Shown: positions 1 to 12,869 of the stretch, in pieces
Layout: each line of letters begins with the position of its first letter
How positions within the stretch are numbered: the stretch's first letter is position 1
DNA from: Sulfobacillus benefaciens
GTDB taxonomy: Bacteria > Bacillota > Sulfobacillia > Sulfobacillales > Sulfobacillaceae
Direction: 5' to 3'
NCBI GenBank assembly: GCA_003023725.1
Contig: PXYT01000079.1
Coordinates: 1-12,869, forward strand
Length of the DNA: 12,869 nt
The notes under the pieces: model-generated
Seen by the model: only the letters and a program-made list of their open reading frames with translations
The model's database searches: none
Told to the model about the DNA's origin: nothing
Position numbers and translations under genes: made by a program

Positions 1-1
1 G

Positions 2-784
2 AATCAGCTATATCAAGATTCACGAATCCTTCAACAGAAAAAACTGGTGCGTTATGGATATGTTTGGGAAGGAAATTCCTACGAAGGTCTCACCTGCGAC
101 TGGATGGAATTTATGACCGATGCCGGTGGCAAAATTTTCAGCAACGCGTCGTTAACCCATTCCGTCATTGACTCTGCGGCATCACTCAAAGCCCTGACCT
201 TTATGCGCAAGTTAATTACCAGCGGAGTTAGCCCTTCATCCGTAACAACCTTTGAAGAACCACAAGCGATGGCTGTTTTTGACGCTGGTCAAAGTGCATT
301 TTTGCGCAACTGGGATTATGCATGGTCTAACTCTAATGACCCGAAAGTCTCCAAGGTCGTGGGCCATGTGGGTGTTGCCCCTCTCCCGACATTCTCTCAA
401 TCGCAATACCCGGGGTACTCAAACATCGGTGGATGGGATATTTACGTCAATCCCCACAGCCAGCACGTCTCACAAGACTTAAGCTTTATTCGTTGGATGA
501 CTGGCACTCAAGCGCAAACGGTATTGGCCACGAAATATTCGGAAATCCCTACCAACTATTCGGTGCAGAAGAACCCCACCGTCAAACGAGTGAATCCGGT
601 ACTGAACATCGTCAGTAAAGTAAGGCTGGTTCCGCGGCCTTCGGGAACTCCATCCTATCCTAAGATTAGTCAGGCCATCTATACGAACATCAACAGCGCA
701 CTAACAGGATCGCTTTCACCGAGCGCAGCCCTCAAAAAAGCCCAGGCACAGATAGATCGGGCGGTCAGCAAGAATTCACTGTAA
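2..784 (+). CDS. ABC transporter extracellular solute-binding protein (family 1, sugar type), 5' end outside window
   Basis: The frame is open from nt 2 with no stop before the GTG at 47 used by the ORF track, so the gene starts upstream of the window. It lies directly upstream of two MalF/MalG-type permease genes. The sequence has carbohydrate-SBP character (WDYAWSNSNDPK, GGWDIYVNPHS, LATKYSEIPT). Confidence 0.85.
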   Translation, partial: NQLYQDSRILQQKKLVRYGYVWEGNSYEGLTCDWMEFMTDAGGKIFSNASLTHSVIDSAASLKALTFMRKLITSGVSPSSVTTFEEPQAMAVFDAGQSAFLRNWDYAWSNSNDPKVSKVVGHVGVAPLPTFSQSQYPGYSNIGGWDIYVNPHSQHVSQDLSFIRWMTGTQAQTVLATKYSEIPTNYSVQKNPTVKRVNPVLNIVSKVRLVPRPSGTPSYPKISQAIYTNINSALTGSLSPSAALKKAQAQIDRAVSKNSL

Positions 785-845
785 GAGACCGATAAAAGGC
801 TTTATGCCTATCCTATCCTACCTAGTGTCCTAAAAGGAGTTATTT

Positions 846-1811
846 ATGGGTACACCTAAGCTCTTAGAACCTCAATTGACAAACCCATCCCCTCGTCCTG
901 AAAAGAGATCACCAGGGTTAAGCCGTCGTCTAGCTCGACAAGGTTGGGCGTTCGCCTTGCCTGCCTTGGTAATGATTGCAGCAATTACCATTTTCCCGAT
1001 CTTGTACTCTGTCATAGTCAGCTTGAATCATATTACCTTTACATCGCAAGGTTACCATTTTCAATGGGTAGGCCTACATAATTATTCGGTGATTTTTTCA
1101 AATCCGCTATATCGATACTCATTGATTTTTACAGTGATTTATACGATCGTCACCGTGTTTGTTGAATTAGTCGTAGGCCTGCTCATTGCGCTGGTTCTGG
1201 ATAAATTGATTGCGGGACGGGGACTGATGCTGGCTGTGCTGCTTCTGCCCTGGTCCTTGATTACCGTTATTTCGGCTGAAATGTGGAATTACATCTATAA
1301 CGGCGTATATGGTGTGCTCAATGCGCTGTTGATAGGAATCGGTATCTTGCACACGCCGGTAGTGTGGCTAGGGAAACCATTCATTGCAATCGTTTCTATG
1401 ATGTTCGCGGATATCTGGAAAACGACACCCTTCGTTGCCATTATCTTATTGGCCGGACTGCAGATGATTCCTCATGAACTGTATGAAGCCGCTGAGATGG
1501 ACGGCGCCAGTGGATCGGCGCGTTTTTGGCGCATTACGTTTCCGTTATTGCGGCCGACTATTGCGCTATCCGTCCTTTTTCGAGTGTTGCAAGCCTTTGG
1601 TATTTTTGACTTGCCGTTTGTACTCACTCAAGGAGGACCCGGTCACGCTACCGAATCGTTGGCTTTGCTGGGATGGCAAGTTATGTTTCAAGATTTGAAC
1701 ATGGGTCGGGGCGCGGCTATCGCCGCCAGTACAACGCTTATTGTCTTGGGCGCTTCACTATTAGTCTTACGAGCATTTCGCGCTCAAGTCGGAGAGGAGG
1801 ACCTGGGATGA
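846..1811 (+). CDS. ABC sugar transporter permease (MalF/UgpA-like)
   Basis: 321 aa and multi-TM. It carries the EAA-loop signature of binding-protein-dependent permeases (EAAEMDGASGSARFWRITFPLLRP). AAGGAG at 834-839 lies 6 nt before the ATG at 846. Confidence 0.9.
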   Translation: MGTPKLLEPQLTNPSPRPEKRSPGLSRRLARQGWAFALPALVMIAAITIFPILYSVIVSLNHITFTSQGYHFQWVGLHNYSVIFSNPLYRYSLIFTVIYTIVTVFVELVVGLLIALVLDKLIAGRGLMLAVLLLPWSLITVISAEMWNYIYNGVYGVLNALLIGIGILHTPVVWLGKPFIAIVSMMFADIWKTTPFVAIILLAGLQMIPHELYEAAEMDGASGSARFWRITFPLLRPTIALSVLFRVLQAFGIFDLPFVLTQGGPGHATESLALLGWQVMFQDLNMGRGAAIAASTTLIVLGASLLVLRAFRAQVGEEDLG

Positions 1812-2647
1812 AGATGCGACGCCGTGCCAGACGCACGCAAATGATAGCCACTTTATGGTCTATTGTCATTGCACTGTTTATGCTGGCTCCTCTATATTGG
1901 CTCGTTACTACGTCATTCAAAACACCGTCCGAGATCGGCGCTTCACCTCCTACTGTGGTACCAAACCCCGTTAGTCTGCACAATTACGCTCGGGCATTTA
2001 CCTATTACCATTTTCAAGTTTACATGCGTAACAGTGTGATTGTGTCAGTGGGAGCGACGATCTTGGTTTTGGCTCTTGGTTCCATGGCGGGATACAGTCT
2101 AGGGCGTCTTCCGGTGCGCGGGAAACACAGCATCTTGGTGGCACTCTTAATGATTTCAGTGTTCCCGGAAATCGCCGTAATTTCCCCATTGTTTATGCTG
2201 ATGCGAACACTGGGCTGGCTTAATTCATATCAAGCGCTGATTATCCCGTATACCGCCTTCAATTTACCGTTTGCCATTTGGATCCTCCGGAATTACTTTT
2301 TAGTCATTCCGCGAGAAATGGAGGAAGTCGCAAGGATCGACGGAGCCTCAGCTCTTAGAACGTTGGTTCAGATAATTTTGCCGCAAGCTACTCCCGGACT
2401 TTTTACCGCGGGAGTGTTTACGTTTACCGCGGCATGGACGGAATTTCTCATGGCCCTAACATTTAATTCCAGCCCTGAATTTCGAACCATCCCAGTAGGG
2501 ATTGCTCTCTTTGGCGCTCAATTCGTCATCCCCTATGGCACCATTTTTGCCGCATCCACTGCGGCTGTTGTGCCAATTGGCATTTTAGTGCTGGTTTTCC
2601 GGCGATCGGTAGTGTCCGGACTCACTCAAGGAGCTGTCAAAGGTTAA
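1808..2647 (+). CDS. ABC sugar transporter permease (MalG/UgpE-like)
   Basis: I prefer the ATG at 1808. It overlaps the stop of the previous gene as ATGA (1808-1811) and is preceded by GGAGAGGAGG. The EAA loop is EVARIDGASALRTLVQIILPQATP. The product is 279 aa and multi-TM. Confidence 0.9.
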   Translation: MKMRRRARRTQMIATLWSIVIALFMLAPLYWLVTTSFKTPSEIGASPPTVVPNPVSLHNYARAFTYYHFQVYMRNSVIVSVGATILVLALGSMAGYSLGRLPVRGKHSILVALLMISVFPEIAVISPLFMLMRTLGWLNSYQALIIPYTAFNLPFAIWILRNYFLVIPREMEEVARIDGASALRTLVQIILPQATPGLFTAGVFTFTAAWTEFLMALTFNSSPEFRTIPVGIALFGAQFVIPYGTIFAASTAAVVPIGILVLVFRRSVVSGLTQGAVKG

Positions 2648-2672
2648 CATGATTATCTAAAGGAGTTCAATT

Positions 2673-5105
2673 ATGGCTGATAGAGTTGATGCCTCACTTT
2701 CCAAGAATTTTGATGTCCAAGAGATTAGGACTGCACGCCTGTCGGCGAATCGGCGCTCCGTCACATTGGAAAGCCCTACGGAGACTTGGTCCATTGCCAT
2801 TATGAGCGGAATTGTTCATGTGCATCTCCGAAATGGAGTGGATACCTTTCACGACCAGATCTTGCCGCTCTTGGGGGGAGGGCCACAGCCCTCGCCGTTG
2901 ACGTTGATGACCTTGGGTTCAAACGCATGGAACATCAAAGGTGACAGTCTCACTATCCGAATTGAAAGAAGCGGTCAATTTCGGGTTCAATGTGCGGGGG
3001 AAACGGTATTTGTCCTGGAAAAATGGCGACGTGAAGGAACAAAACTCTCTTGTGAATGCCGCCTAAACTCTGAAGAGCACGTGTATGGAATGGGCGAAAA
3101 AACAGGCTCGCTGAATAAGCGCGGTCAGTGTTCGACCCAATGGACCACCGACGTTCATCCGCATACCGCCGACGTGGACGCCATGTATCAAGCTTTACCG
3201 ATGACCTTATTGGGAAGCCCAAATGGTTCTCGCGGAATTTTCTTGGCGAACACTTTCAGAACATTTTTTGATAGCCGTGCGAGCGACAGTCTGACTATTG
3301 CGGCTGACGATGGCCCCCTCTCGTTATATCTGTTTACGGGACCTACTCCCCAGGCTGTTCTGGAACAATATACTGCCGTTACCGGACACCCTCTTCTACC
3401 CCCACGCTGGGCTCTAGGATATCAGCAGAGTCGTTACAGCTACTTGAGTGCAAACGAAGTATTAGATATTGCCCGAGAATTTCGAGCCCGTGATATTCCT
3501 TTGGACGTGCTCTATTTAGACATCGATTACATGGATGGATTTCGCGTGTTTACATGGAATCCCACCACCTTTCCGAATCCGGGGAAAATGATTAAAGAAC
3601 TCAACAGCATGGGAATTCACATCGTGGCCATCATCGACCCCGGAGTAAAGGCGGAAACCGGATACCGCGTCTATGATGAAGGATTATCTCAAGACGCGTT
3701 TGTACGCTACACCGACGACACTTTGTTTAGAAGCCACGTGTGGCCAGGATTATGCGTGTTCCCAGATTTTTTGCAAACGCATGTACGCACATGGTGGGCA
3801 GAGAAAAATCGTCAATTGATGGAGATGGGACTTTCAGGCATCTGGAACGACATGAACGAACCTGCCTTGTGGGGAAACGAGTTGGGGGACCCCACAAGAA
3901 CGGGACAGAGTAATGATGAAGGATTGGTCCATCGAACGGATGCGGGCACCTTGCTTCCTCATGCCGGAGTTCACAACGTGTACGCCCTTTTGGAAGCGAT
4001 AGCTACCTACCAGGGATTGGGGGGGATGGAAACCGATCCTTCACGGTCTCGGCCGTTTATTCTTAGTCGGTCAGGTTTTAGCGGTATCCAACAATTTTCA
4101 GCGGTCTGGACGGGCGACAATAATAGTTCATGGGAGCATTTGTCTATGGCTATCCCGATGTGCTTGAACATGGGAATGTCTGGCATACCGTTCGTAGGAC
4201 CAGACCTGGGTGGATTTTTTGGCAATCCCCAACCAGAACTCTTTATTCGCTGGATGGAAGCAGGAGTTTTTTTCCCGTTTCTCCGTGCTCACACGGATAA
4301 AGATGCTTCTCCCAATGAACCTTGGTGCTTTGGTTCGGAAGCCGAGTCGATTGCTCGCCAGTTCATTGGGTATCGCTACCGTCTTCTGCCCTACCTCGAA
4401 AGTTTGTTTGCAGAGTCTAATCAAACAGGTGCACCAATCATGCGACCATTGTTTTGGGCCAATCCTGATGATCCCCTGGCGTATGCCGTAGATGATCAAT
4501 TTCTTGTCGGGGATATGCTTCTTATTGCGCCAGTTACACGTCCGAATGCTCGTCAGCGCCCCGTCTATCTGCCGAACGGAGTGTGGTATGATTTCTGGAC
4601 CGGCCACCGTCACGGTGGACCGACTCACATCATGGCAGACGCTCCATTAAACCGCATTCCTGTCTTCGTGCGATCAGGAGCTATTATCCCACTGGGACCT
4701 CCCGTGACGTCAACCAAACACCTGGAAGAACTTGGCCGGGAAGGAACCGGTAATATCGAGAGCTTATTTATTGTATCAGGCACCGGACATTTTACTGCGT
4801 ACACCGACGATGGCACGACATTCTTGTATCAACGTGGACATTGGCGCAGAATATATGTACGCGTACAATCCATTGAGAAATCCACGGTCGTACATCTTAG
4901 CATGGTGAACGGATCCTTAGATGCACCCTTGCCGCTTGGCCGCTTTAGAGTACTCATAGGATATTTCACTACTGCTCCCCAAGCAGCACGTGTAGACGGT
5001 CGGCTTACTGCTTGGAAGTGGGATCCGAACACGGGCATAGTGACAATCATACTGCCTCGAGTGTTAACGTTGAACGAACCGATGATCATAGCTGTTGAAG
5101 GTTAA
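2673..5105 (+). CDS. GH31 family alpha-glucosidase
   Basis: 810 aa. The GH31 nucleophile motif GIWNDMNEP is present (Asp393, codon 3849-3851). The acid/base region AVWTGDN is present (Asp482, codon 4116-4118). AAGGAG at 2660-2665 lies 7 nt before the ATG. It is the last gene of the sugar operon. Confidence 0.9.
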   Translation: MADRVDASLSKNFDVQEIRTARLSANRRSVTLESPTETWSIAIMSGIVHVHLRNGVDTFHDQILPLLGGGPQPSPLTLMTLGSNAWNIKGDSLTIRIERSGQFRVQCAGETVFVLEKWRREGTKLSCECRLNSEEHVYGMGEKTGSLNKRGQCSTQWTTDVHPHTADVDAMYQALPMTLLGSPNGSRGIFLANTFRTFFDSRASDSLTIAADDGPLSLYLFTGPTPQAVLEQYTAVTGHPLLPPRWALGYQQSRYSYLSANEVLDIAREFRARDIPLDVLYLDIDYMDGFRVFTWNPTTFPNPGKMIKELNSMGIHIVAIIDPGVKAETGYRVYDEGLSQDAFVRYTDDTLFRSHVWPGLCVFPDFLQTHVRTWWAEKNRQLMEMGLSGIWNDMNEPALWGNELGDPTRTGQSNDEGLVHRTDAGTLLPHAGVHNVYALLEAIATYQGLGGMETDPSRSRPFILSRSGFSGIQQFSAVWTGDNNSSWEHLSMAIPMCLNMGMSGIPFVGPDLGGFFGNPQPELFIRWMEAGVFFPFLRAHTDKDASPNEPWCFGSEAESIARQFIGYRYRLLPYLESLFAESNQTGAPIMRPLFWANPDDPLAYAVDDQFLVGDMLLIAPVTRPNARQRPVYLPNGVWYDFWTGHRHGGPTHIMADAPLNRIPVFVRSGAIIPLGPPVTSTKHLEELGREGTGNIESLFIVSGTGHFTAYTDDGTTFLYQRGHWRRIYVRVQSIEKSTVVHLSMVNGSLDAPLPLGRFRVLIGYFTTAPQAARVDGRLTAWKWDPNTGIVTIILPRVLTLNEPMIIAVEG

Positions 5106-5143
5106 TAGAGAAGATCGACGATTACACTCTCTAGCAATGGCCG

Positions 5144-5692
5144 TCAAATGATGCTCGGCTCTGTCACGTTGTTTATCATCGTTCTAAATCGGCATGCGTT
5201 GCGCAAGAGGCTTATACCCTTAACGTGTTTTGGCGAATTCCCTTTTGTTGTCTGAATATCCGCGGAGGCTTTTTTCTCACCCCCACGATTGTCACGAAAA
5301 CAGAAAACATCTGCAGGCGAGGCGGTGACGGCTAGGCGAAAGCGATCAATGTGTACGCCTGTGTCGACGAGTGCAGGCTCTCGTGAAAAGGTTGCCCATC
5401 ATTCATGAGCATTCTGCCACCCACTATGAGGCCCGGATCCATTACCGGATCCGTTGCGGCGAAAGAACAGCAAGGACGTCGAACGCGACACGGGATCGAT
5501 TCCGAATCCGGATGTCCCTAAATAAAGGACATTATCGTCATCTTCCAGTCCCAATATCGCGAACCCGCCCCTGAGAGAAATTTGGGGAACAACCGCAGGG
5601 GCGATCAAGATCCGGTTCCCCGAAAGTGCTGCGGCATCCCGGGTTTTCACGTCGCACCCGGTTTTGAACCTCTGGAGGCCGCGCCGTCTCAC
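5144..5692 (-). pseudogene. Unassigned 183-codon reading frame broken by one in-frame TGA (5399-5401)
   Basis: The 97-aa track ORF 5399-5692 continues in the same frame for 84 more sense codons (WATFSREPALVDTGVHIDRFRLAV...) to a TGA at 5144-5146. There is no convincing RBS and I recognise no family. Confidence 0.25.
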
Positions 5693-5735
5693 AATATCGT
5701 TTTCAAAACTCTATAACCTGTCTGGCGCTTCACAC

Positions 5736-6548
5736 TCAACCCATGACGATTAACGCAGCGCCAATAGCAATTGCAATGGATATCCACAGAGCGTCACGCC
5801 GCATGCGCTCCCGCAAAAAGAGCCATCCCATCCAAGGAGACAGAGCGATGCCAATCTGTCGCAGTGCCAAAACGGGAGCCGCTGCAGTTCGCTGGTACGC
5901 GTAGAGAATAAGGAGATATGAGATCATACTCATCAGCCCTGCTCCAGCAGCCACATGAACTCGTACCACTGTACGATCTTTGAGTGCCCATGGAGTCAAC
6001 ACCACTGCCGTTCCCAAGAACTGGCATGCTATATAGGGAATTGGCGACAGGAGGTGAACACCGTGGCTGTCGGTCGTTGAATACACCGCAATGCTGGCCA
6101 TCACTAAAAGCGTCCACGACATCCGGGAAAGCGTCCAACGAGCACGAAAAGCCGGCACCATCACCGCCAAGGCAACCACAAGTATCCCGCACAGTGTCAC
6201 AAGAGGAATCGGCTGCTGCAAAAGCAGTCCAGCCAAAAGCACCGTGCCCAGAATGCCTCCGCCCCGCGTAGCTGGATAGATGTCACCCAGATCGCCCTCC
6301 TTATAGGCGTGAGCCAACCCCGAAAAATAGAAAGCATGTGCGATGATTGTTCCTGACAGCCACGGCCACACACGATGAAAGTCCGGTGAAAAACCCAGCG
6401 CCAAAGCGGCAACGGTGGCGAGCAGCCCCCCAGCCAGAGTAAGATACCACACAAACTTGAGACTTCCCGGCTCATGGCGCACCAAAAGGTTCCAAGTCAG
6501 ATGCAGGAGCGCCGAGGCCAAGACCAAGCCCGCCACCAGTTCAGACAT
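5736..6548 (-). CDS. EamA/DMT-superfamily-like integral membrane transporter
   Basis: 270 aa and hydrophobic almost throughout (about 9-10 TM segments), with two similar halves typical of EamA-type carriers. GGAAGGTGA lies 6 nt upstream of the ATG at 6548. Confidence 0.75.
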   Translation of the reverse strand: MSELVAGLVLASALLHLTWNLLVRHEPGSLKFVWYLTLAGGLLATVAALALGFSPDFHRVWPWLSGTIIAHAFYFSGLAHAYKEGDLGDIYPATRGGGILGTVLLAGLLLQQPIPLVTLCGILVVALAVMVPAFRARWTLSRMSWTLLVMASIAVYSTTDSHGVHLLSPIPYIACQFLGTAVVLTPWALKDRTVVRVHVAAGAGLMSMISYLLILYAYQRTAAAPVLALRQIGIALSPWMGWLFLRERMRRDALWISIAIAIGAALIVMG

Positions 6549-6905
6549 TACGCATCACCTTCCACACAGCGCCATAGTGGGCAAAGGCAGAGCTTCTTGA
6601 AAACATCCTCAAAGAATTTCTGAAACTGTGCCGGTCGTTGGAATCCGTCTTGAGCACACTCTGCAGGCATGGATCACAACCCCCAGCCTTATGTTTGACA
6701 GACTTCCACAAAATGCCAGAACAGAGCCTGTTTAGTGCTATTTCCTGGGTTTTGCTTTTTCATCCATCAATCCAGACACGACGAAATAGCGTCCCCTTTA
6801 CAGTGCCGACATCCAAACCCGAAGATGTGATCCTGTGAGTACAGCCATCAAATCCGGCGGTGAGCCAGCGTCTTGGGCCTATTTGTGTTCACTTTTTGCC
6901 CATTC
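6548..6905 (-). pseudogene. Remnant of an AraC-family HTH regulator (C-terminal DNA-binding domain only, frame-broken)
   Basis: The minus strand reads ...AECAQDGFQRPAQFQKFFEDVFKK.. (6646 downward). This resembles the second AraC HTH (IA.ecGF.s.s.F.r.Fkk). Its TAA (6550-6548) overlaps the eamA-like ATG by 1 nt. Upstream, HTH1-like text (AQDAGSPPDLMAV...EKAKPRK) appears only across stops and frame changes. No N-terminal domain is present. Confidence 0.35.
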
Positions 6906-7034
6906 GTGATCTTACTCCTACCTTACTAAAGGATGCCGAATATAGGATCGTCCCGTCTGCATCAAATCAGCGGTGGTACGGGGACTACTCCGTCCTTCAG
7001 GAAGAGGGAGAGGAGCGCCGTGTCTCTCCTTTTC

Positions 7035-8159
7035 TCATGATGCGATCGGTTGTTGGATATACTGCCGGCCGTCACTCAGTTGCAGAACGTGTCCGGGTTT
7101 CCCGAATGTTTTGGGACGCTGATCGGAGTCAGCGGCGATGACGAGGCGCCCGCCCCTTTCACACCCCGGCATACTTTCCGCGAATAATGCCGGCGTAGAC
7201 CAGATCCCCGGCCTGAAAGCCCAACCGCTGTTTCTTTTACGGCGCGACGCATAGCGAATAGAAAACCCGTATTGATCGCTTCGGCATATTTGTCGTAGCC
7301 CTCGGCCCTTCACGGTTCCCACCTGGACAATAGGCGAAGAGGCGCATACAGTCATGGGCAGTGCTCGCTGCCACGCAAAGAGCATCGTAATTATGTTCTT
7401 TAGGCCGGTTATGCTGAACCCGTTGCATTTTGGTAGAAAGCCCTCCGGCCCCGCCTCCCACGGGGAGTCCCGTGGCTTGCCGTTGGGTCTACAGCTTCTA
7501 CCAGGCCGCATTCATGAACCCTGCTCCTCGCAGCGATTTTTTTGGTTCGTGTTTGGATATCCGGATGTCCAAATTCCGCGCCGGTTTTGCGATCTTCATC
7601 CTGATTACAATCGTGGCACGCTTTGCTGATATTCCGCCCCTGAAGTTTCGGGGGTTTCGAGCTTGTGCGTATCACATTTAACGTGTTCGGCGCTGAGGGC
7701 CGCAATGGGCAGGAATTTTCGGAGTTTCACTGCCGCATTAACCGTTTTATTTACGCGCGTTTGTAAACTTGGTGGTAGCCAACCTGTTCGACGCTTGCGA
7801 TGGAGAAACCTTGATTGACGATAACGAGTTTTCCGATTGCGTCGCGCTCGCCGCAGGCCACTCCGACTGTCGAGTTTGTCTTTAATATGGGCCTTGGCAA
7901 ACCTGTCGCTCAGAAAAACCGCCTTTGTACTGGGCGTCCCTTGCAGGGTCACGGCTACACCGGTTATTTTGGTCCCCGGATCGAACTTGAGTGGTATATC
8001 TTGCAATACCGACCCTTGTTGCACGCGATCCACCAGTCGCATAGGGAATGAGTACCGCTTATGGATTCCGGCTCGACCGCGTTCCAAGAGCAATCGCACG
8101 GGTTTTTCCGAGCACGGCATCCACGGTCTTTGATGTTTATCCAACACGAATACGGCCAT
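7035..8159 (-). pseudogene. iscB: IscB (OMEGA RNA-guided nuclease, IS200/IS605 superfamily) pseudogene
   Basis: ORF 7605-8159 carries the PLMP-type N-terminus (MAVFVLDKHQRPWMPCSEKP), RuvC-I (LKFDPGTKITGVAV), an Arg-rich bridge helix (RRARRNRKTRYRQSRFLHRKRRTGWLPPSL) and RuvC-II (LSAEHVKCD..AEYQQ). Homology then continues only in shifted frames. These hold the HNH C-terminal half ACHDCNQDEDRKTGAEFGHPDIQ (7621-7553) and RuvC-III GLPVGGGAGGLSTKMQRV..PKEHNYDALCV. The C-terminal pieces are VKGRGLRQICRSDQYGF, GFQAGDLVYAGIIRGKYAGV and LQLSDGRQY. Internal stops lie at 7498-7500, 7489-7491, 7237-7239 and 7159-7161. Confidence 0.85.
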
Positions 8160-8400
8160 GTTAAAAACTCCTTTGCCCTTACGGGCCCGGTGACACGTTC
8201 TGACGACCCTCTCTCCTCGCCAAAGTTATCCCAGCTGGTTTGGCCCGTCATACCCTCGCACCTCTAGCCGGCTGTTTAATGACGGGCGGCAGAGTGGGAA
8301 ACCGGAGAAGCATTCCCCGCTGCCCTAACCGAAATAACTAAAGTACCCTAGGCACGAAAGCTGGTCAACCCAGGAGCTTTCACAAGTCCTGTCCTTTAGG
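8160..8400 (-). ncRNA. Candidate IscB omegaRNA (HEARO-type guide RNA scaffold)
   Basis: ORF-free region immediately 5' of iscB on the same strand. Nested helices read on the minus strand are GGCAG 8324-8320 / CUGCC 8292-8288 and GGGAA 8317-8313 / UUCCC 8300-8296. There is also a perfect 9-bp helix GCCCGUCAU 8287-8279 / AUGACGGGC 8251-8243. A GCCC-GUAA-GGGC GNRA hairpin (8186-8175) abuts the AAAGGAG RBS. The 5' boundary is only estimated. Confidence 0.6.
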
Positions 8401-8418
8401 ACGGCGTGGCTGAGTTGT

Positions 8419-9408
8419 CTATCCCCACCGGATCGCCGCCATAGCCATGAGACCCGTAACCATCCCCAAAGGCAGGGCTATGCCCCACACCATGAACATA
8501 GTGCGCACCACCACCCATTTCACCTTCAGTGGATTTAATGCGGTGCCCGTCCCCAATAATGCTCCATCCGTTGTTTGCGTTGTACTCACCGGCATCCCCA
8601 ACAGGGCCGCCAGACTGACTGTTAGGGCTGCCGCGCTTTGAGTGCTCAGCGCATTCATGGGGTCCAAGCGAATGATATGCCCTCCCACGGTTTTGGCGAT
8701 ACGCACTCCGCCTCCCCAAAATCCTAGAGCCCAAAAACCCAAGGGGACAACCACGGAAATCCAGGACACGTGATAATGGACATGATGACCCCATAGCATC
8801 AGGGTCAGCGCCATCAGTCCAATGGCCTTTTCTTGATCGTTGGCCCCGTAGGCTAAGCCCTGCCACACTGCACTCCCGTATTGCAAACGTTTCAGAGAGC
8901 GGTATCCGGACAAAGACGTCAAGCTCAAAACATCCCATAGCAGCCGCGTCAACAAAAATGCTGCGACAAACCCTAACACAACCGACAGGCCCATCCCCAC
9001 AAGCACTGTGAGAAGCCCTGCCCAGTGAATAAACCGGGTATCCCCAGACGCTATCGCAGCCCCGACCATTCCTCCGCCCAAGGCCATGGTCATACTGGTA
9101 GGCATCCGCATGCGCCAAGTGACAAATACGCTTAACACCGCAGATCCCACGGCGACAGCCAGTACATCGGGATTGGCTTGGTGAAAATTGATGATGGCTA
9201 CGGTAATGGTCCGGGACACCGCGGTGCCAAACAAGACAGGACCTAAGGCGACGCTGCCCACAAGCACAGGAAAAATGAGGGCCGGTGCGATCACTCCCCC
9301 GCGCAGGAATGTGGCCATCAGATTACCGCCATCGTTAAAACCGGCCAACACACTGAACAGGGCAATTAATACAAAAATGCCGATATAAATAGAATCCACA
9401 GGGGCCAC
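8419..9408 (-). CDS. PiT-family inorganic phosphate (or sulfate) transporter
   Basis: 329 aa and multi-TM. Both halves carry the PiT signature (AGFNDGGN near the N-terminus and AYGANDQEKAIG in the second half). The start is GTG at 9408, with AAGGAAAG 3 nt upstream. Confidence 0.85.
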   Translation of the reverse strand: MAPVDSIYIGIFVLIALFSVLAGFNDGGNLMATFLRGGVIAPALIFPVLVGSVALGPVLFGTAVSRTITVAIINFHQANPDVLAVAVGSAVLSVFVTWRMRMPTSMTMALGGGMVGAAIASGDTRFIHWAGLLTVLVGMGLSVVLGFVAAFLLTRLLWDVLSLTSLSGYRSLKRLQYGSAVWQGLAYGANDQEKAIGLMALTLMLWGHHVHYHVSWISVVVPLGFWALGFWGGGVRIAKTVGGHIIRLDPMNALSTQSAAALTVSLAALLGMPVSTTQTTDGALLGTGTALNPLKVKWVVVRTMFMVWGIALPLGMVTGLMAMAAIRWG

Positions 9409-9461
9409 CGACTTTCCTTATCTCACCCGGTCATAGTTGTTCCAAGAGATCATGAACCGGG

Positions 9462-9503
9462 ATCTTAACGTGGGCATAACGTAATCTTAACACAATCTTA
9501 ACA
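9462..9503. promoter_or_regulatory. Four phased direct hexamers (Pho-box-like response-regulator site) upstream of the PiT gene
   Basis: TTAACG 9465-9470, ATAACG 9476-9481, TTAACA 9487-9492 and TTAACA 9498-9503 have starts exactly 11 bp apart. Three copies share the longer unit ATCTTAAC. The array lies 57-95 nt upstream of the pit start codon. Confidence 0.45.
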
Positions 9504-9843
9504 TTTTCCAAGCCCTTGTACTGAGTCCTTAAGACGTAACACAAAATGCGTTAAGCTTTGGAAGTTCCAGGGAATTGATCTCAACTCGTAATCCCTTGAG
9601 GGTCAGTGGCTCCCGGAATCCCTGGTTCAGTGTTTTCCCCAGTGCCTTCATCTCTGCTCTCAGGGCCCAACGCTCTTTTCTAGGACGAAGACGTGCCAGT
9701 CGGACACATCCCACAGAGCCAAAGGGTCATCCCCAATATATTCACCATGCCACAAATCGGGGATAAAACCGATGGGCAAGAGGTCTTTAAATTTCCCATG
9801 CAATACTGGCCGACTGCCGCCATCACGCGGATCTTCCCATCAA

Positions 9844-9899
9844 GGAATACAGGCGTAAAGCTCTCCGACTGTCAGGCCGGGGTTTTACGCCTGTATTCC
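9844..9899. repeat. Perfect 16-bp inverted repeat (hairpin, 24-nt spacer)
   Basis: GGAATACAGGCGTAAA (9844-9859) is the exact reverse complement of TTTACGCCTGTATTCC (9884-9899). The stem can extend inward by G-U and G-C pairs. No U-tract sits on the correct side for a terminator on either strand. Confidence 0.7.
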
Positions 9900-9974
9900 G
9901 ACGAAAAAATATTTGAATTAAAGCCGGCCCTTCCATGCTCATTTGACGTGAACCGCAGCGGAACGCCGACTATC

Positions 9975-10006
9975 CAGAAAACAGCCGTTCGCTGGGTTCC
10001 GCTGTC
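9975..10006 (-). terminator. Weak candidate intrinsic terminator after the cupredoxin-like gene
   Basis: On the minus strand, ACAGC (10005-10001) pairs with GCUGU (9985-9981). A G-C pair sits above a G.G mismatch and the loop is 11 nt. The hairpin is followed by UUUUCU. It lies about 65 nt past the stop at 10068. Confidence 0.3.
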
Positions 10007-10067
10007 TGCATCGTCATCATCGGCCGGCATTGCCTCGTAGCGATATCCATGAAACAGATGACGACCT

Positions 10068-10589
10068 TTATGATGATGGAGATACAGAAGGATTTCCCCC
10101 GGATACCACTTTGACTGTGTCCCAGATGTCACTGGTGGGTGTGGTTTTACCACCATTTAACCAGTCCGCCAACATATAAGTGCCCACTTTCGTAGCCGTA
10201 AACTTATAAAGTCGGTGCTGGCCGGGCAATATTCCCGCTGTTGGCTTTACGGCAATTTGACGATAGGACTCACCGGCTCCCGGAAAGGCGAGATGGTGAC
10301 GCCGATAAACACCTATAGATTCCGGTATCGGCCCGTGATTGATAAAGTCCATCTTCACGTGATAACCTTCGGGGATGGTGACAACCATCCCCCCGCGCGT
10401 GAATCCGTCCAATACGGAACTTTGCTGAGAGCTGGAATAGGTGCTCTCCACCTTCAAATCAATCGTTTTCGAGGACGGATGAATCGTCATCCACTTCGCC
10501 GCCGTGAGGTTCGGAGAACCGCATCCCGCCAACACAAGCGATAATGCCCCAATCACAGCCACTCCCGTCCACTTGGCCCCTACTCGCAT
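10068..10589 (-). CDS. Lipoprotein with sulfocyanin/cupredoxin-like domain lacking type-1 copper ligands
   Basis: I prefer the ATG at 10589, with AGAGGAGTG 6 nt upstream. The signal peptide and lipobox read MRVGAKWTGVAVIGALSLVLAGC. The mature part follows the cupredoxin layout (GGMVVTIPEGYHVKMDFINHGPIPES ... KFTATKVGTYMLADW). The only Cys in the protein is the lipobox Cys. Confidence 0.7.
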   Translation of the reverse strand: MRVGAKWTGVAVIGALSLVLAGCGSPNLTAAKWMTIHPSSKTIDLKVESTYSSSQQSSVLDGFTRGGMVVTIPEGYHVKMDFINHGPIPESIGVYRRHHLAFPGAGESYRQIAVKPTAGILPGQHRLYKFTATKVGTYMLADWLNGGKTTPTSDIWDTVKVVSGGNPSVSPSS

Positions 10590-10758
10590 GGTTCTCACTC
10601 CTCTTGATAAGTTTTGCGGCAAAGCACCACTCTTGTCTGGTCACCGGAAGCTCTCGGGACATGCCCTAACAATTCCACACGCAACACATTTGTGCTCGCC
10701 CCGCACTATCTGCCGTAGGGCCGCCTCCTACTCCGTCTGCCTCGCAGCGTGCGGATTC

Positions 10759-11181
10759 TTAACGCGACCGAGGCCGCCAACTGCCTAAGATAGCAAGCGC
10801 CAAGTTCACTTGAGTACGCGGCACACAAATCTTAATCGAGCGCGTGTGATCCGCCAGGCTCCACACCCCGTAATAGATGAATTGGCGACCGTTTTGAACT
10901 TGCCATTCCCGCAAATTCCGTCCGACATTCGGCAGCATTCGGGCTTTGGCCGGCACATTTTTCGCGGTAAATGAAGGCAAGAACCATAGCCCCCACCTAG
11001 ATGAGGTTTCCACATAGGCCCCTGCTCCACCGTCGCGATGCCAGCTCGGTGGTATGGTAATGCTCTCACCCTGATGATGGACCACCTGCCAGCGGCCGGA
11101 CTGTATCCCTGTCCACACCGCCGTGAAAACCACAGCGCCCAAAACCACCGTACCGATCACCATGGCTCTGCGTAATCTCAT
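10759..11181 (-). CDS. Hypothetical membrane-anchored protein (N-terminal TM helix)
   Basis: 140 aa. The N-terminus MRLRRAMVIGTVVLGAVVFTAVWTGI is a signal-anchor type segment. A GAAGGA-like RBS is present. It shares its strand with, and lies upstream of, the cupredoxin-like gene. I recognise no family. Confidence 0.55.
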   Translation of the reverse strand: MRLRRAMVIGTVVLGAVVFTAVWTGIQSGRWQVVHHQGESITIPPSWHRDGGAGAYVETSSRWGLWFLPSFTAKNVPAKARMLPNVGRNLREWQVQNGRQFIYYGVWSLADHTRSIKICVPRTQVNLALAILGSWRPRSR

Positions 11182-11596
11182 GATCCTTCACATCTTTCTC
11201 TGATTCGCCTTCAGACTCGTCCCTCCGCACGGATTTAAACAGGAGTAACCCAGGCACAAACCTTCGGTCTACGTTCGATCAGTCTGAAACGTGCACGGTT
11301 TAAGACAGCGGGATGAGAGGTCATCAGGACATCACCGTGTGATCCCGGACATTGAGTGGTATCGTGTCACATATCTCGCGAGAGGACAGCATGTCGGCAG
11401 CAATACCCCACGACTGACCGGATCAAAAATTTCCTTGCCAGTCCTGATTACAGCGGATGATCGAAGAGTTTTCGTGTGCTTTACATCTTCTAGAATTTTC
11501 ACAGCATTGTCAAGACGGAGTGGAGAAAACGGAAACATACGACGAAAATATGACGAGCGAGGGGACAGATTGTCACCGGAATGAACGATTGTCAAA

Positions 11597-12303
11597 GTGC
11601 GGAAGACGAGTAAGGTAGGACCTAAGCCGGAAGACTTCGCTCAGAGGAACTAGCCGTATCATGGCGGGACAGGAGGCGATGAATGGCACTTTTGCCAAGT
11701 GATAAATGCGGAGTGGGCCGACTTAAATCAGAACATTCTGGATTGCTGTCACGCAAGAAAATGGCACAGAGCGAGGTGAGGAGAACCCGGAAATCTCAGG
11801 CAAGGCAGCGAAAGCGTGTAAACCGGCTCGAATTCCGCAACACCGCACGGATGATTCCCTGGGTGTCCAGACGACGTCGCCGTCGGCCAATCGTTTCCCC
11901 GGAAATGTCATGGAGCCGGTCCCGCGGATCGGCTCTCCCCGGGGAAAATGGACGGGCGGGGGCACATGATGGGAGTCTTCATTCACAGCTCAACACGCGG
12001 CTCTAACCCGGCCATCTCCCAGAGTGTAACATGGCGGCATCATCGTGATTTTCCCCCAGGGGCAAGATACGCACCGAATGATCAGGAGTATTTCGTGTGG
12101 GGAAAGTCATCCCCTGGCTGATTCACGATTCGGTGACAAGAGAATGGAAAGTGGACAACGACTCCAGCGAAAAGCCGGAGGATTCTCAGTGCTGTGGCCG
12201 GCTTCAAGGGGAGCCGTTGTCAGTTCTTTGACGGCACGGTGGCTCTGGGGGTGGTAAGTCTGGCAGCGCTGTTGAGGTGTTTCACCGTGAGGGATCTTGT
12301 GCG
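11597..12303 (+). ncRNA. ORF-poor, hairpin-dense region; candidate degenerate or ORF-less group II intron-like RNA
   Basis: It starts with GUGCG (11597-11601). It is purine-rich with many GAAA/GGAAA elements. A composite hairpin joins CCCCGG 11897-11902 / CCGGGG 11939-11944 with GGAGCCG 11912-11918 / CGGCUCU 11930-11936. A 35-nt hairpin GAGCCGU...ACGGUGGCUC (12211-12245) resembles domain V at its base. Only Arg-rich junk ORFs are present and there is no RT/maturase ORF. Confidence 0.3.
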
Positions 12304-12397
12304 TACGAGTTTTGGTGTTCTCAGGCCCTCCAAATTCCCTTCTGCGCCTACGCTTATTACTGTGTACCCAATAATATGACGTGGCGAGTGGATAGAC

Positions 12398-12538
12398 ATC
12401 ATTTTTCAAAATCAAAGTCACACCCCTTGACATGAGCGCATCATGGGTCACCACAGGCACAAGCAGGATTTTCGAGTCTGCGCGGATCTCCCCATCCACG
12501 GACTCACCAAAGTCAAAATCTTTCCCAACACACCGCAT
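12398..12538 (-). pseudogene. Possible D-aminoacyl-tRNA deacylase (dtd)-like remnant with internal deletion
   Basis: MRCVGKDFDFGESVDGEIRADSKILLVPVVTHD loosely follows the Dtd N-terminus pattern (M..V.QRV..A.V.VDGE..G.I..GLLVL.GV..D). It runs directly into GVTLILKND, which is like the Dtd C-terminus DGPVTLIL. This is recalled from memory only, and the rest of track ORF 12107-12538 overlaps the structured region and looks spurious. Confidence 0.15.
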
Positions 12539-12629
12539 ATAGCGGTGAAATTGAGACTGGACCTGCTGCTTGAGGGGGCTTGGTTAATGACATAAGGGGC
12601 GGAGGCAAGTTCACCAACTTTTGCCATTA

Positions 12630-12869
12630 TTAAAGAAAAGAACGACTGAAATTGATAACATTTGCCCACCTATTTTCTTTTATGTCACATCCATCTCGCA
12701 GAGAAATCTCGTACAGCTCCGGCCCGGTAATGACAGCCTGTCGTTCGAGGCCTCCCCCTAAAATACCGTACATCCCGGTACTCGCTCGAATCCGGTCCCT
12801 TACCAAAACAGGGCGTAAAGCCCCCGGCTTCAGCCGTGGGGATAGAAGCCCATGGCCCGACAGGGCCAA
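12630..12869 (-). CDS. Partial unassigned ORF open to the window edge
   Basis: The frame is open from the last base of the window to a TAA at 12630-12632. I recognise no family. It may be part of a frame-broken gene together with ORFs 12448-12669 and 12107-12538. Confidence 0.2.
   Translation of the reverse strand: MALSGHGLLSPRLKPGALRPVLVRDRIRASTGMYGILGGGLERQAVITGPELYEISLRDGCDIKENRWANVINFSRSFL

Follow-up and report, generated by a model that had tools for sequence, protein, structure and literature searches.

A broken gene for IscB, an RNA-guided nuclease that is carried by transposons and related to Cas9, lies on the minus strand of contig PXYT01000079.1 of Sulfobacillus benefaciens (the window, that is, the whole stretch analysed, comprises positions 1-12,869, 12,869 nucleotides), where it runs from an ATG at 8157-8159 to a terminal TGA at 7035-7037; together with the RNA at its upstream side, it very probably represents a dead and drifting IscB/omega RNA element, an OMEGA element of the IS200/IS605 type inserted downstream of a gene for a PiT phosphate transporter. 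An element carrying iscB and omega RNA would have landed directly behind the PiT gene, oriented as this gene is, and would later have lost function and drifted neutrally; its nuclease gene is dead, with the HNH catalytic core deleted, the remainder scattered over six frame segments, and three stops in the reading path. Judged by its sequence, the remnant is unable to encode the nuclease, and RNA-guided cleavage is predicted to be absent. The earlier note had already seen here a former RNA-guided mobile element, and this is borne out: IscB profiles match, the domains follow each other in order, a HEARO RNA (the RNA now termed omega RNA of IscB) lies directly upstream, and the lesions recur in 11 other assemblies. 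The remnant is thus an ordinary pseudogene of a known and abundant mobile-element family, one of many in this genome.

The descent from IscB is evident from the N-terminal part. The frame that begins at the ATG stays open for 184 residues (7608-8159, ending in a TGA at 7605-7607) and covers PLMP, RuvC-I, bridge helix and RuvC-II, with the motifs PWMP (PLMP domain), KFDPGTK (RuvC-I), an Arg-rich bridge helix, and SAEHV (RuvC-II). It is matched by Pfam RRXRR over residues 3-179 (1.9e-55), so that the PLMP-domain feature is present, and by NCBIfam guided_IscB (1e-56), whose 192 bits exceed the cut-off of 175; these matches cover the first 176-180 model positions. Downstream of this frame, all three minus-strand frames are interrupted, and positions 253-313 of guided_IscB match 7372-7557 with two TAG codons inside the match. 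The genome's own long-ORF IscB copies, at about 36% identity, are too far removed for the broken C-terminal part to be followed well; we therefore took as references 12 intact IscB proteins from genomes of the same family (420-473 aa), which share 53-60% identity with the window copy in its N-terminal part and match the solved IscB structures 7xht and 7utn.

These relatives can be aligned to the window only across frames. In tblastn, reference residues 1-179 fall into frame -1 (8159-7623), residues from about 216/227 to 258 into frame -2 (7651/7633-7538), residues 255-385 into frame -3 (7548-7147), and residues 327-437 again into frame -1 (7328-7011); the shifted segments have E-values of 4.5e-27 and 2.3e-11. 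A dynamic programme that aligns protein to DNA and models frameshifts as states of their own, run with six references at frameshift penalties of -8, -14 and -20, scores the broken C-terminal part at 377, whereas 12 shuffled versions of this DNA reach 30-51. Across frames, the order is PLMP, RuvC-I, bridge helix, RuvC-II, a deletion junction, distal HNH, RuvC-III, and the C-terminal WED/TAM-interacting region. The claim that every module of IscB is readable in its expected place is thus confirmed, from 8159 to about 7038, and both the profile and the intact proteins align across the shifted frames. The split-RuvC motifs FDPG, AEHV and EHNYDAL are kept, but in different frames, as seen by alignment to the intact relatives; in OgeuIscB, the RuvC positions are D61, E193, H340 and D343 (PMC9640706). 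The remnant thus resembles IscB (OgeuIscB, PDB 7xht/7utn; PMC9640706) in the order of PLMP, RuvC-I, bridge helix, RuvC-II, HNH, RuvC-III and C-terminal WED/TI, in an omega RNA upstream on the same strand, and in having no transposase gene, as is the case for most iscB elements (no tnpA was found within the window); it differs in the deleted HNH core, in its five frame changes and three stops, and in PWMP taking the place of PLMP.

One lesion is the loss of the HNH core: reference residues 178-228, 51 residues or 153 nt, are without counterpart. The loss includes the CxxC motif and the region of the catalytic His, and takes with it 23 of the 25 columns of this stretch in which the 12 intact relatives do not vary, among them the motifs CxxC and EH. 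Only part of HNH had been recognized in the first reading of this DNA, and indeed the distal ACHDCNQ segment alone remains. The junction (7615-7625, minus strand, as are all further parts) coincides with a +1 frame change, after which the distal HNH (ACHDCNQ...AEFGHPDIQ) continues in the second frame at 7538-7621, as found both by tblastn and by the frameshift-aware alignment. The second frame change, at about 7536, coincides with an exact A7 run (T7 on the plus strand, 7537-7543), just as the earlier note had proposed, and leads into a third-frame segment with the linker and RuvC-III (EHNYDALCV, 7360-7536); this contains the TAG codons 7498-7500 and 7489-7491, both of which had been named as interruptions and do lie on the best alignment path. 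There follow a first-frame segment of the C-terminal (WED/TAM-interacting) region at 7222-7358, whose entry is ambiguous between 7322 and 7358; a third-frame segment (GFQAGDLV...) at 7141-7221, which contains the TGA 7159-7161, likewise on the best path as claimed, and ends at a 20-nt deletion near 7146-7153; and a last first-frame segment at 7035-7139, with the C-terminal domain and the terminal TGA, again found by tblastn and by the frameshift-aware alignment.

Five frame changes are robust, obtained at penalties of -14 and -20 with six references (near 7621, 7536, 7358 with a range of 7322-7358, 7221-7227, and 7139-7160); they divide the gene into six segments and run in both directions. 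The earlier note had counted at least six: that the reading hops between frames is correct, but the sixth shift, near 7042, appears only at a penalty of -8 and touches just the last few residues. Similarly, the TAA at 7237-7239 exists but does not interrupt the aligned reading, as the best path uses another frame there, so that the in-path stops are the two TAG codons and the TGA. A single frame of about 400-500 codons is absent, the longest open piece being the one of 184 aa. An alternative genetic code or programmed frameshifting was considered as an explanation and rejected, given stops of two kinds, five shifts in both directions, and a missing catalytic HNH core.

The part that is still open is decaying as well. 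Of the 79 columns within it at which the 12 intact relatives all agree, 58 are kept (74%), a rate similar to the 50 of 73 (68%) in the broken part after the deletion, compared to 92-99% for each intact relative in leave-one-out controls, a test which assumes that the ancestor resembled those 12. Among the 21 positions lost are the Leu of PLMP and, in the KRARLLL motif next to it, the RA. A maximum-likelihood tree built from the N-terminal parts places the window copy inside the clade of family-level relatives, with a terminal branch of 0.87 compared to a median of 0.2 (about fourfold), the intact relatives having 0.07-0.21. The open 184-aa frame is thus under relaxed constraint. If the ancestor had the residues in question, the 26% loss of invariant residues would correspond, as a rough estimate, to 0.1-0.15 substitutions per site since constraint ended.

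The match to HEARO (Rfam RF02033) extends over 8205-8414 on the minus strand, directly upstream of the iscB remnant on the same strand and with its 5' end 4 nt past the PiT stop codon; it spans the full model (1-211) and, with 86.6 bits, passes the gathering score of 83 (E = 8.4e-17), being in this respect, and in its position and orientation, what is expected of a HEARO RNA. The guide would correspond to the flank at about 8415-8434. The remnant's RNA differs, however, in that its score lies at the low end of the range of 85.8-147.2 bits seen beside 12 long-ORF iscB genes of the same sub-lineage, in that several of its predicted pairs are non-canonical, and in that it carries two indel polymorphisms, at 8255 in 6 of 12 assemblies and at 8234 in 2 of 12. 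The loss of invariant residues, the long branch, and the low score and indels of the omega RNA fit a neutral drift of the whole element.

They also bear on the possibility that the remnant has been exapted, its omega RNA being produced by read-through from the PiT gene and serving, with or without the 184-aa fragment, in a new role that is independent of the nuclease, whether by working in trans for a different IscB of the genome or by acting as a regulatory RNA. It would then be a domesticated leftover, comparable in spirit to the nuclease-dead regulators derived from TnpB. That the omega RNA still scores above the Rfam gathering threshold, that the N-terminal frame is open for 184 codons, that the locus is kept in all assemblies seen, and that the remnant shares the orientation of the upstream PiT gene, as iscB elements tend to do with their upstream genes (preprint 10.1101/2023.03.14.532601), all speak for such a role; however, we consider it very improbable, as the supposedly retained frame has lost the 21 invariant positions, the RNA sits at the bottom of its relatives' range and varies by indels between strains' assemblies, and the potential partners in trans, three long-ORF IscB copies of another subfamily elsewhere in the genome, are just about 36-38% identical to the remnant and come with an omega RNA of their own.

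The lesions are reproducible across assemblies. A contig from a metagenome-assembled genome (MAG), JAJZAN010000119.1, is 99.2% identical to the window over 3979 nt, and a public collection records precisely this 184-aa product in 56 blocks, from which ten further contigs were retrieved; the comparison set thus consists of 11 other assemblies, NCBI MAGs and ENA metagenomes, aligned over 8440-6900, and their contig names (NODE_ and k141_) indicate that at least two assemblers are among them. All 11 carry, base for base, the identical HNH deletion, the A7 run, the three stops, and all but one of the five frame changes. As these assemblies were retrieved by identity of the 184-aa product, the conservation of their N-terminal part is there by construction; the downstream lesions they have in common, in contrast, are informative, since retrieval chose on the N-terminal protein only. 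The exception is the 20-nt deletion near 7146-7153, which is private to the window: the 20 nt are present in all 11 others and, as seen in the sister contig L013, keep the reading in frame there, so that the population consensus has four frame changes where the window has five. The deletion is flanked by two imperfect direct repeats, and thus reflects either slippage in this one strain or a local collapse of the assembly.

Points in favour of sequencing or assembly errors in an otherwise intact gene are this private deletion, which is seen only here and lies between repeats that an assembler could collapse, the frame change inside the A7 run, and the low coverage of the sister contig L013, about 3.5x according to its name. 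Yet 11 assemblies from at least two assemblers share four frameshifts, three stops and a deletion of 153 nt, and conserved residues are heavily substituted, which errors would not bring about. Errors as the general cause are very unlikely and, with the exception of the 20-nt deletion, largely refuted; this deletion aside, the lesions appear, from the agreement of the assembled sequences, not to be assembly errors, and the remnant is fixed in the species-level population. As the lesions are reproducible across a dozen assemblies, the locus makes a clean annotation case: the 184-aa 'RRXRR protein' that gene finders call here is a pseudogene fragment.

A genome that carries the label of a different genus of the same family (G028, 'Bacillota bacterium HSP1.bin10') has a contig (L013 / L015, G028:C140) that is 99.2% identical to the window over 4 kb (positions 4628-8585); genomes of the same genus reach only 80-84% against the window, in single genes. 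This suggests that the contig is mis-binned in genome G028 or that the MAG is misplaced.

Descent from an IsrB-type nickase, which lacks HNH by nature, is extremely improbable: the remnant shares with IsrB (OMEGA nickase, PDB 8dmb; PMC9581776) the absence of a working HNH core and the PLMP and split-RuvC core, and 8dmb is found among the structural relatives of its N-terminal part, but IsrB is intact and never shows the distal HNH motif, whereas the remnant, broken otherwise, keeps this motif in a shifted frame where it aligns to the HNH of intact IscB, pointing to an IscB ancestor, and a frame change falls at the junction, just what a secondary deletion would be expected to leave.

The limits of the dead element can be approximated from its relatives. 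On the omega RNA side, which by the convention of the preprint 10.1101/2023.03.14.532601 is the right end of the transposon, the element ends at about 8414/8415. At the opposite end, the aligned 3' flanks of 10 intact relatives show a common palindrome and end motif no more than about 80 nt from the stop, of which the window has a degenerate version at about 7034-6960; in the relative L026, the palindrome is perfect and of the same sequence type, and window positions 6988-7032 have a 45-nt match in genome G006. This iscB-distal end, with its degenerate subterminal palindrome and end motif (6960-7034, minus strand), would have its boundary at about 6960, where the similarity to the relatives ends, giving a remnant of probably about 1.45 kb. 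An AraC-type regulator remnant at 6548-7034 was considered as well, but is without support: the stop-to-stop frames there are without a Pfam match at E <= 1, and a six-frame search of the genome with HTH_18 gave no matches on this contig.

Upstream of the remnant lies the PHO4/PiT phosphate transporter gene (8419-9408, minus strand, TAG stop at 8419-8421), and on the other side an EamA-type transporter gene (5736-6548, minus strand), a GH31 glycosidase gene, and ABC sugar-transport genes. The neighbourhood had been called a housekeeping one, a description that does not hold, as these genes (PiT, EamA, ABC permeases, GH31) serve transport and sugar use and are not core housekeeping genes. In two metagenome contigs (L042 and L043), a GDPD-family gene lies beyond the EamA gene (window below about 5700), where the window and the remaining assemblies have the GH31 glycosidase; this is a strain-level rearrangement adjoining the locus. 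A strong hairpin is present upstream of the PiT gene, at 9835-9906; its weak match to the microRNA family mir-1993 (23.6 bits, where 82 is the gathering score) is spurious.

As to its age, the remnant had been proposed as useful for dating IscB activity in this lineage, which is so only to a limited degree: the lesions are older than the spread of the sampled strains, which are 99% identical. Neither an empty site nor an orthologous filled one was found in other species of the genus; these share the PiT gene (80% at the nucleotide level) or the ABC genes (84%), not the junctions, and in the PiT orthologue of genome G003 the similarity ends exactly at the stop codon, with unrelated flanks. With neither an empty nor an older filled site, and with the nearest intact relative at only 55-60% identity, dating stays coarse.

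A search of the genome for intact paralogues, such as the earlier note had in mind, does yield long ORFs, namely the three of the other subfamily, but not a close intact copy. A scan of genome contigs returned one near-identical locus only and no close intact relatives, the 60 relatives contain no close intact copy of this sub-lineage, and among 1.84 billion representative proteins none that is intact exceeds 55% identity to the N-terminal part. The three long ORFs lie on contigs C65, C72 and C144; one of the three is cut by a contig end, and one has a divergent C-terminus. The C-terminus of the C72 copy is unrelated to those of C65 and C144, and its HNH zinc-finger region carries substitutions, so that this copy may be damaged too. 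Beyond these, the genome has at least four full-length Y1_Tnp matches elsewhere, eight HEARO-like matches, two of them above threshold, and at least ten further IscB remnants (including those on C1, C101, C134, C90, C77, C68, C117 and C75). These, for example at C1:129765-130289, C101:67004-67648 and C134:52361-52846, are decay products of the same kind, and in the one on C134 the bridge helix is likewise joined directly to a distal HNH-like segment; they differ in belonging to other copies and subfamilies, at most 45% identical over the N-terminal part. The remnant described here matters little by itself: it adds a decayed OMEGA element to the record of a Bacillota lineage in which genomes with many IscB copies, in all states of decay, are the rule, and a data point on how such elements die, by loss of HNH, slippage at a homopolymer, and deletion between short direct repeats.

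A further mobile element appears to border the window. Its last positions (12797-12869) form a repeat of about 70 nt that starts with TTAC and could fold into a hairpin. Copies with 95-99% identity lie on two more contigs of the genome (C92 and C122), the one on C122 about 1.3 kb before a Y1 transposase match, and copies with 80-93% identity are found at many ends of contigs from related genomes. The repeat probably marks where a further IS200/IS605-type element ends, and is probably the cause of the contig break at this end of the window.
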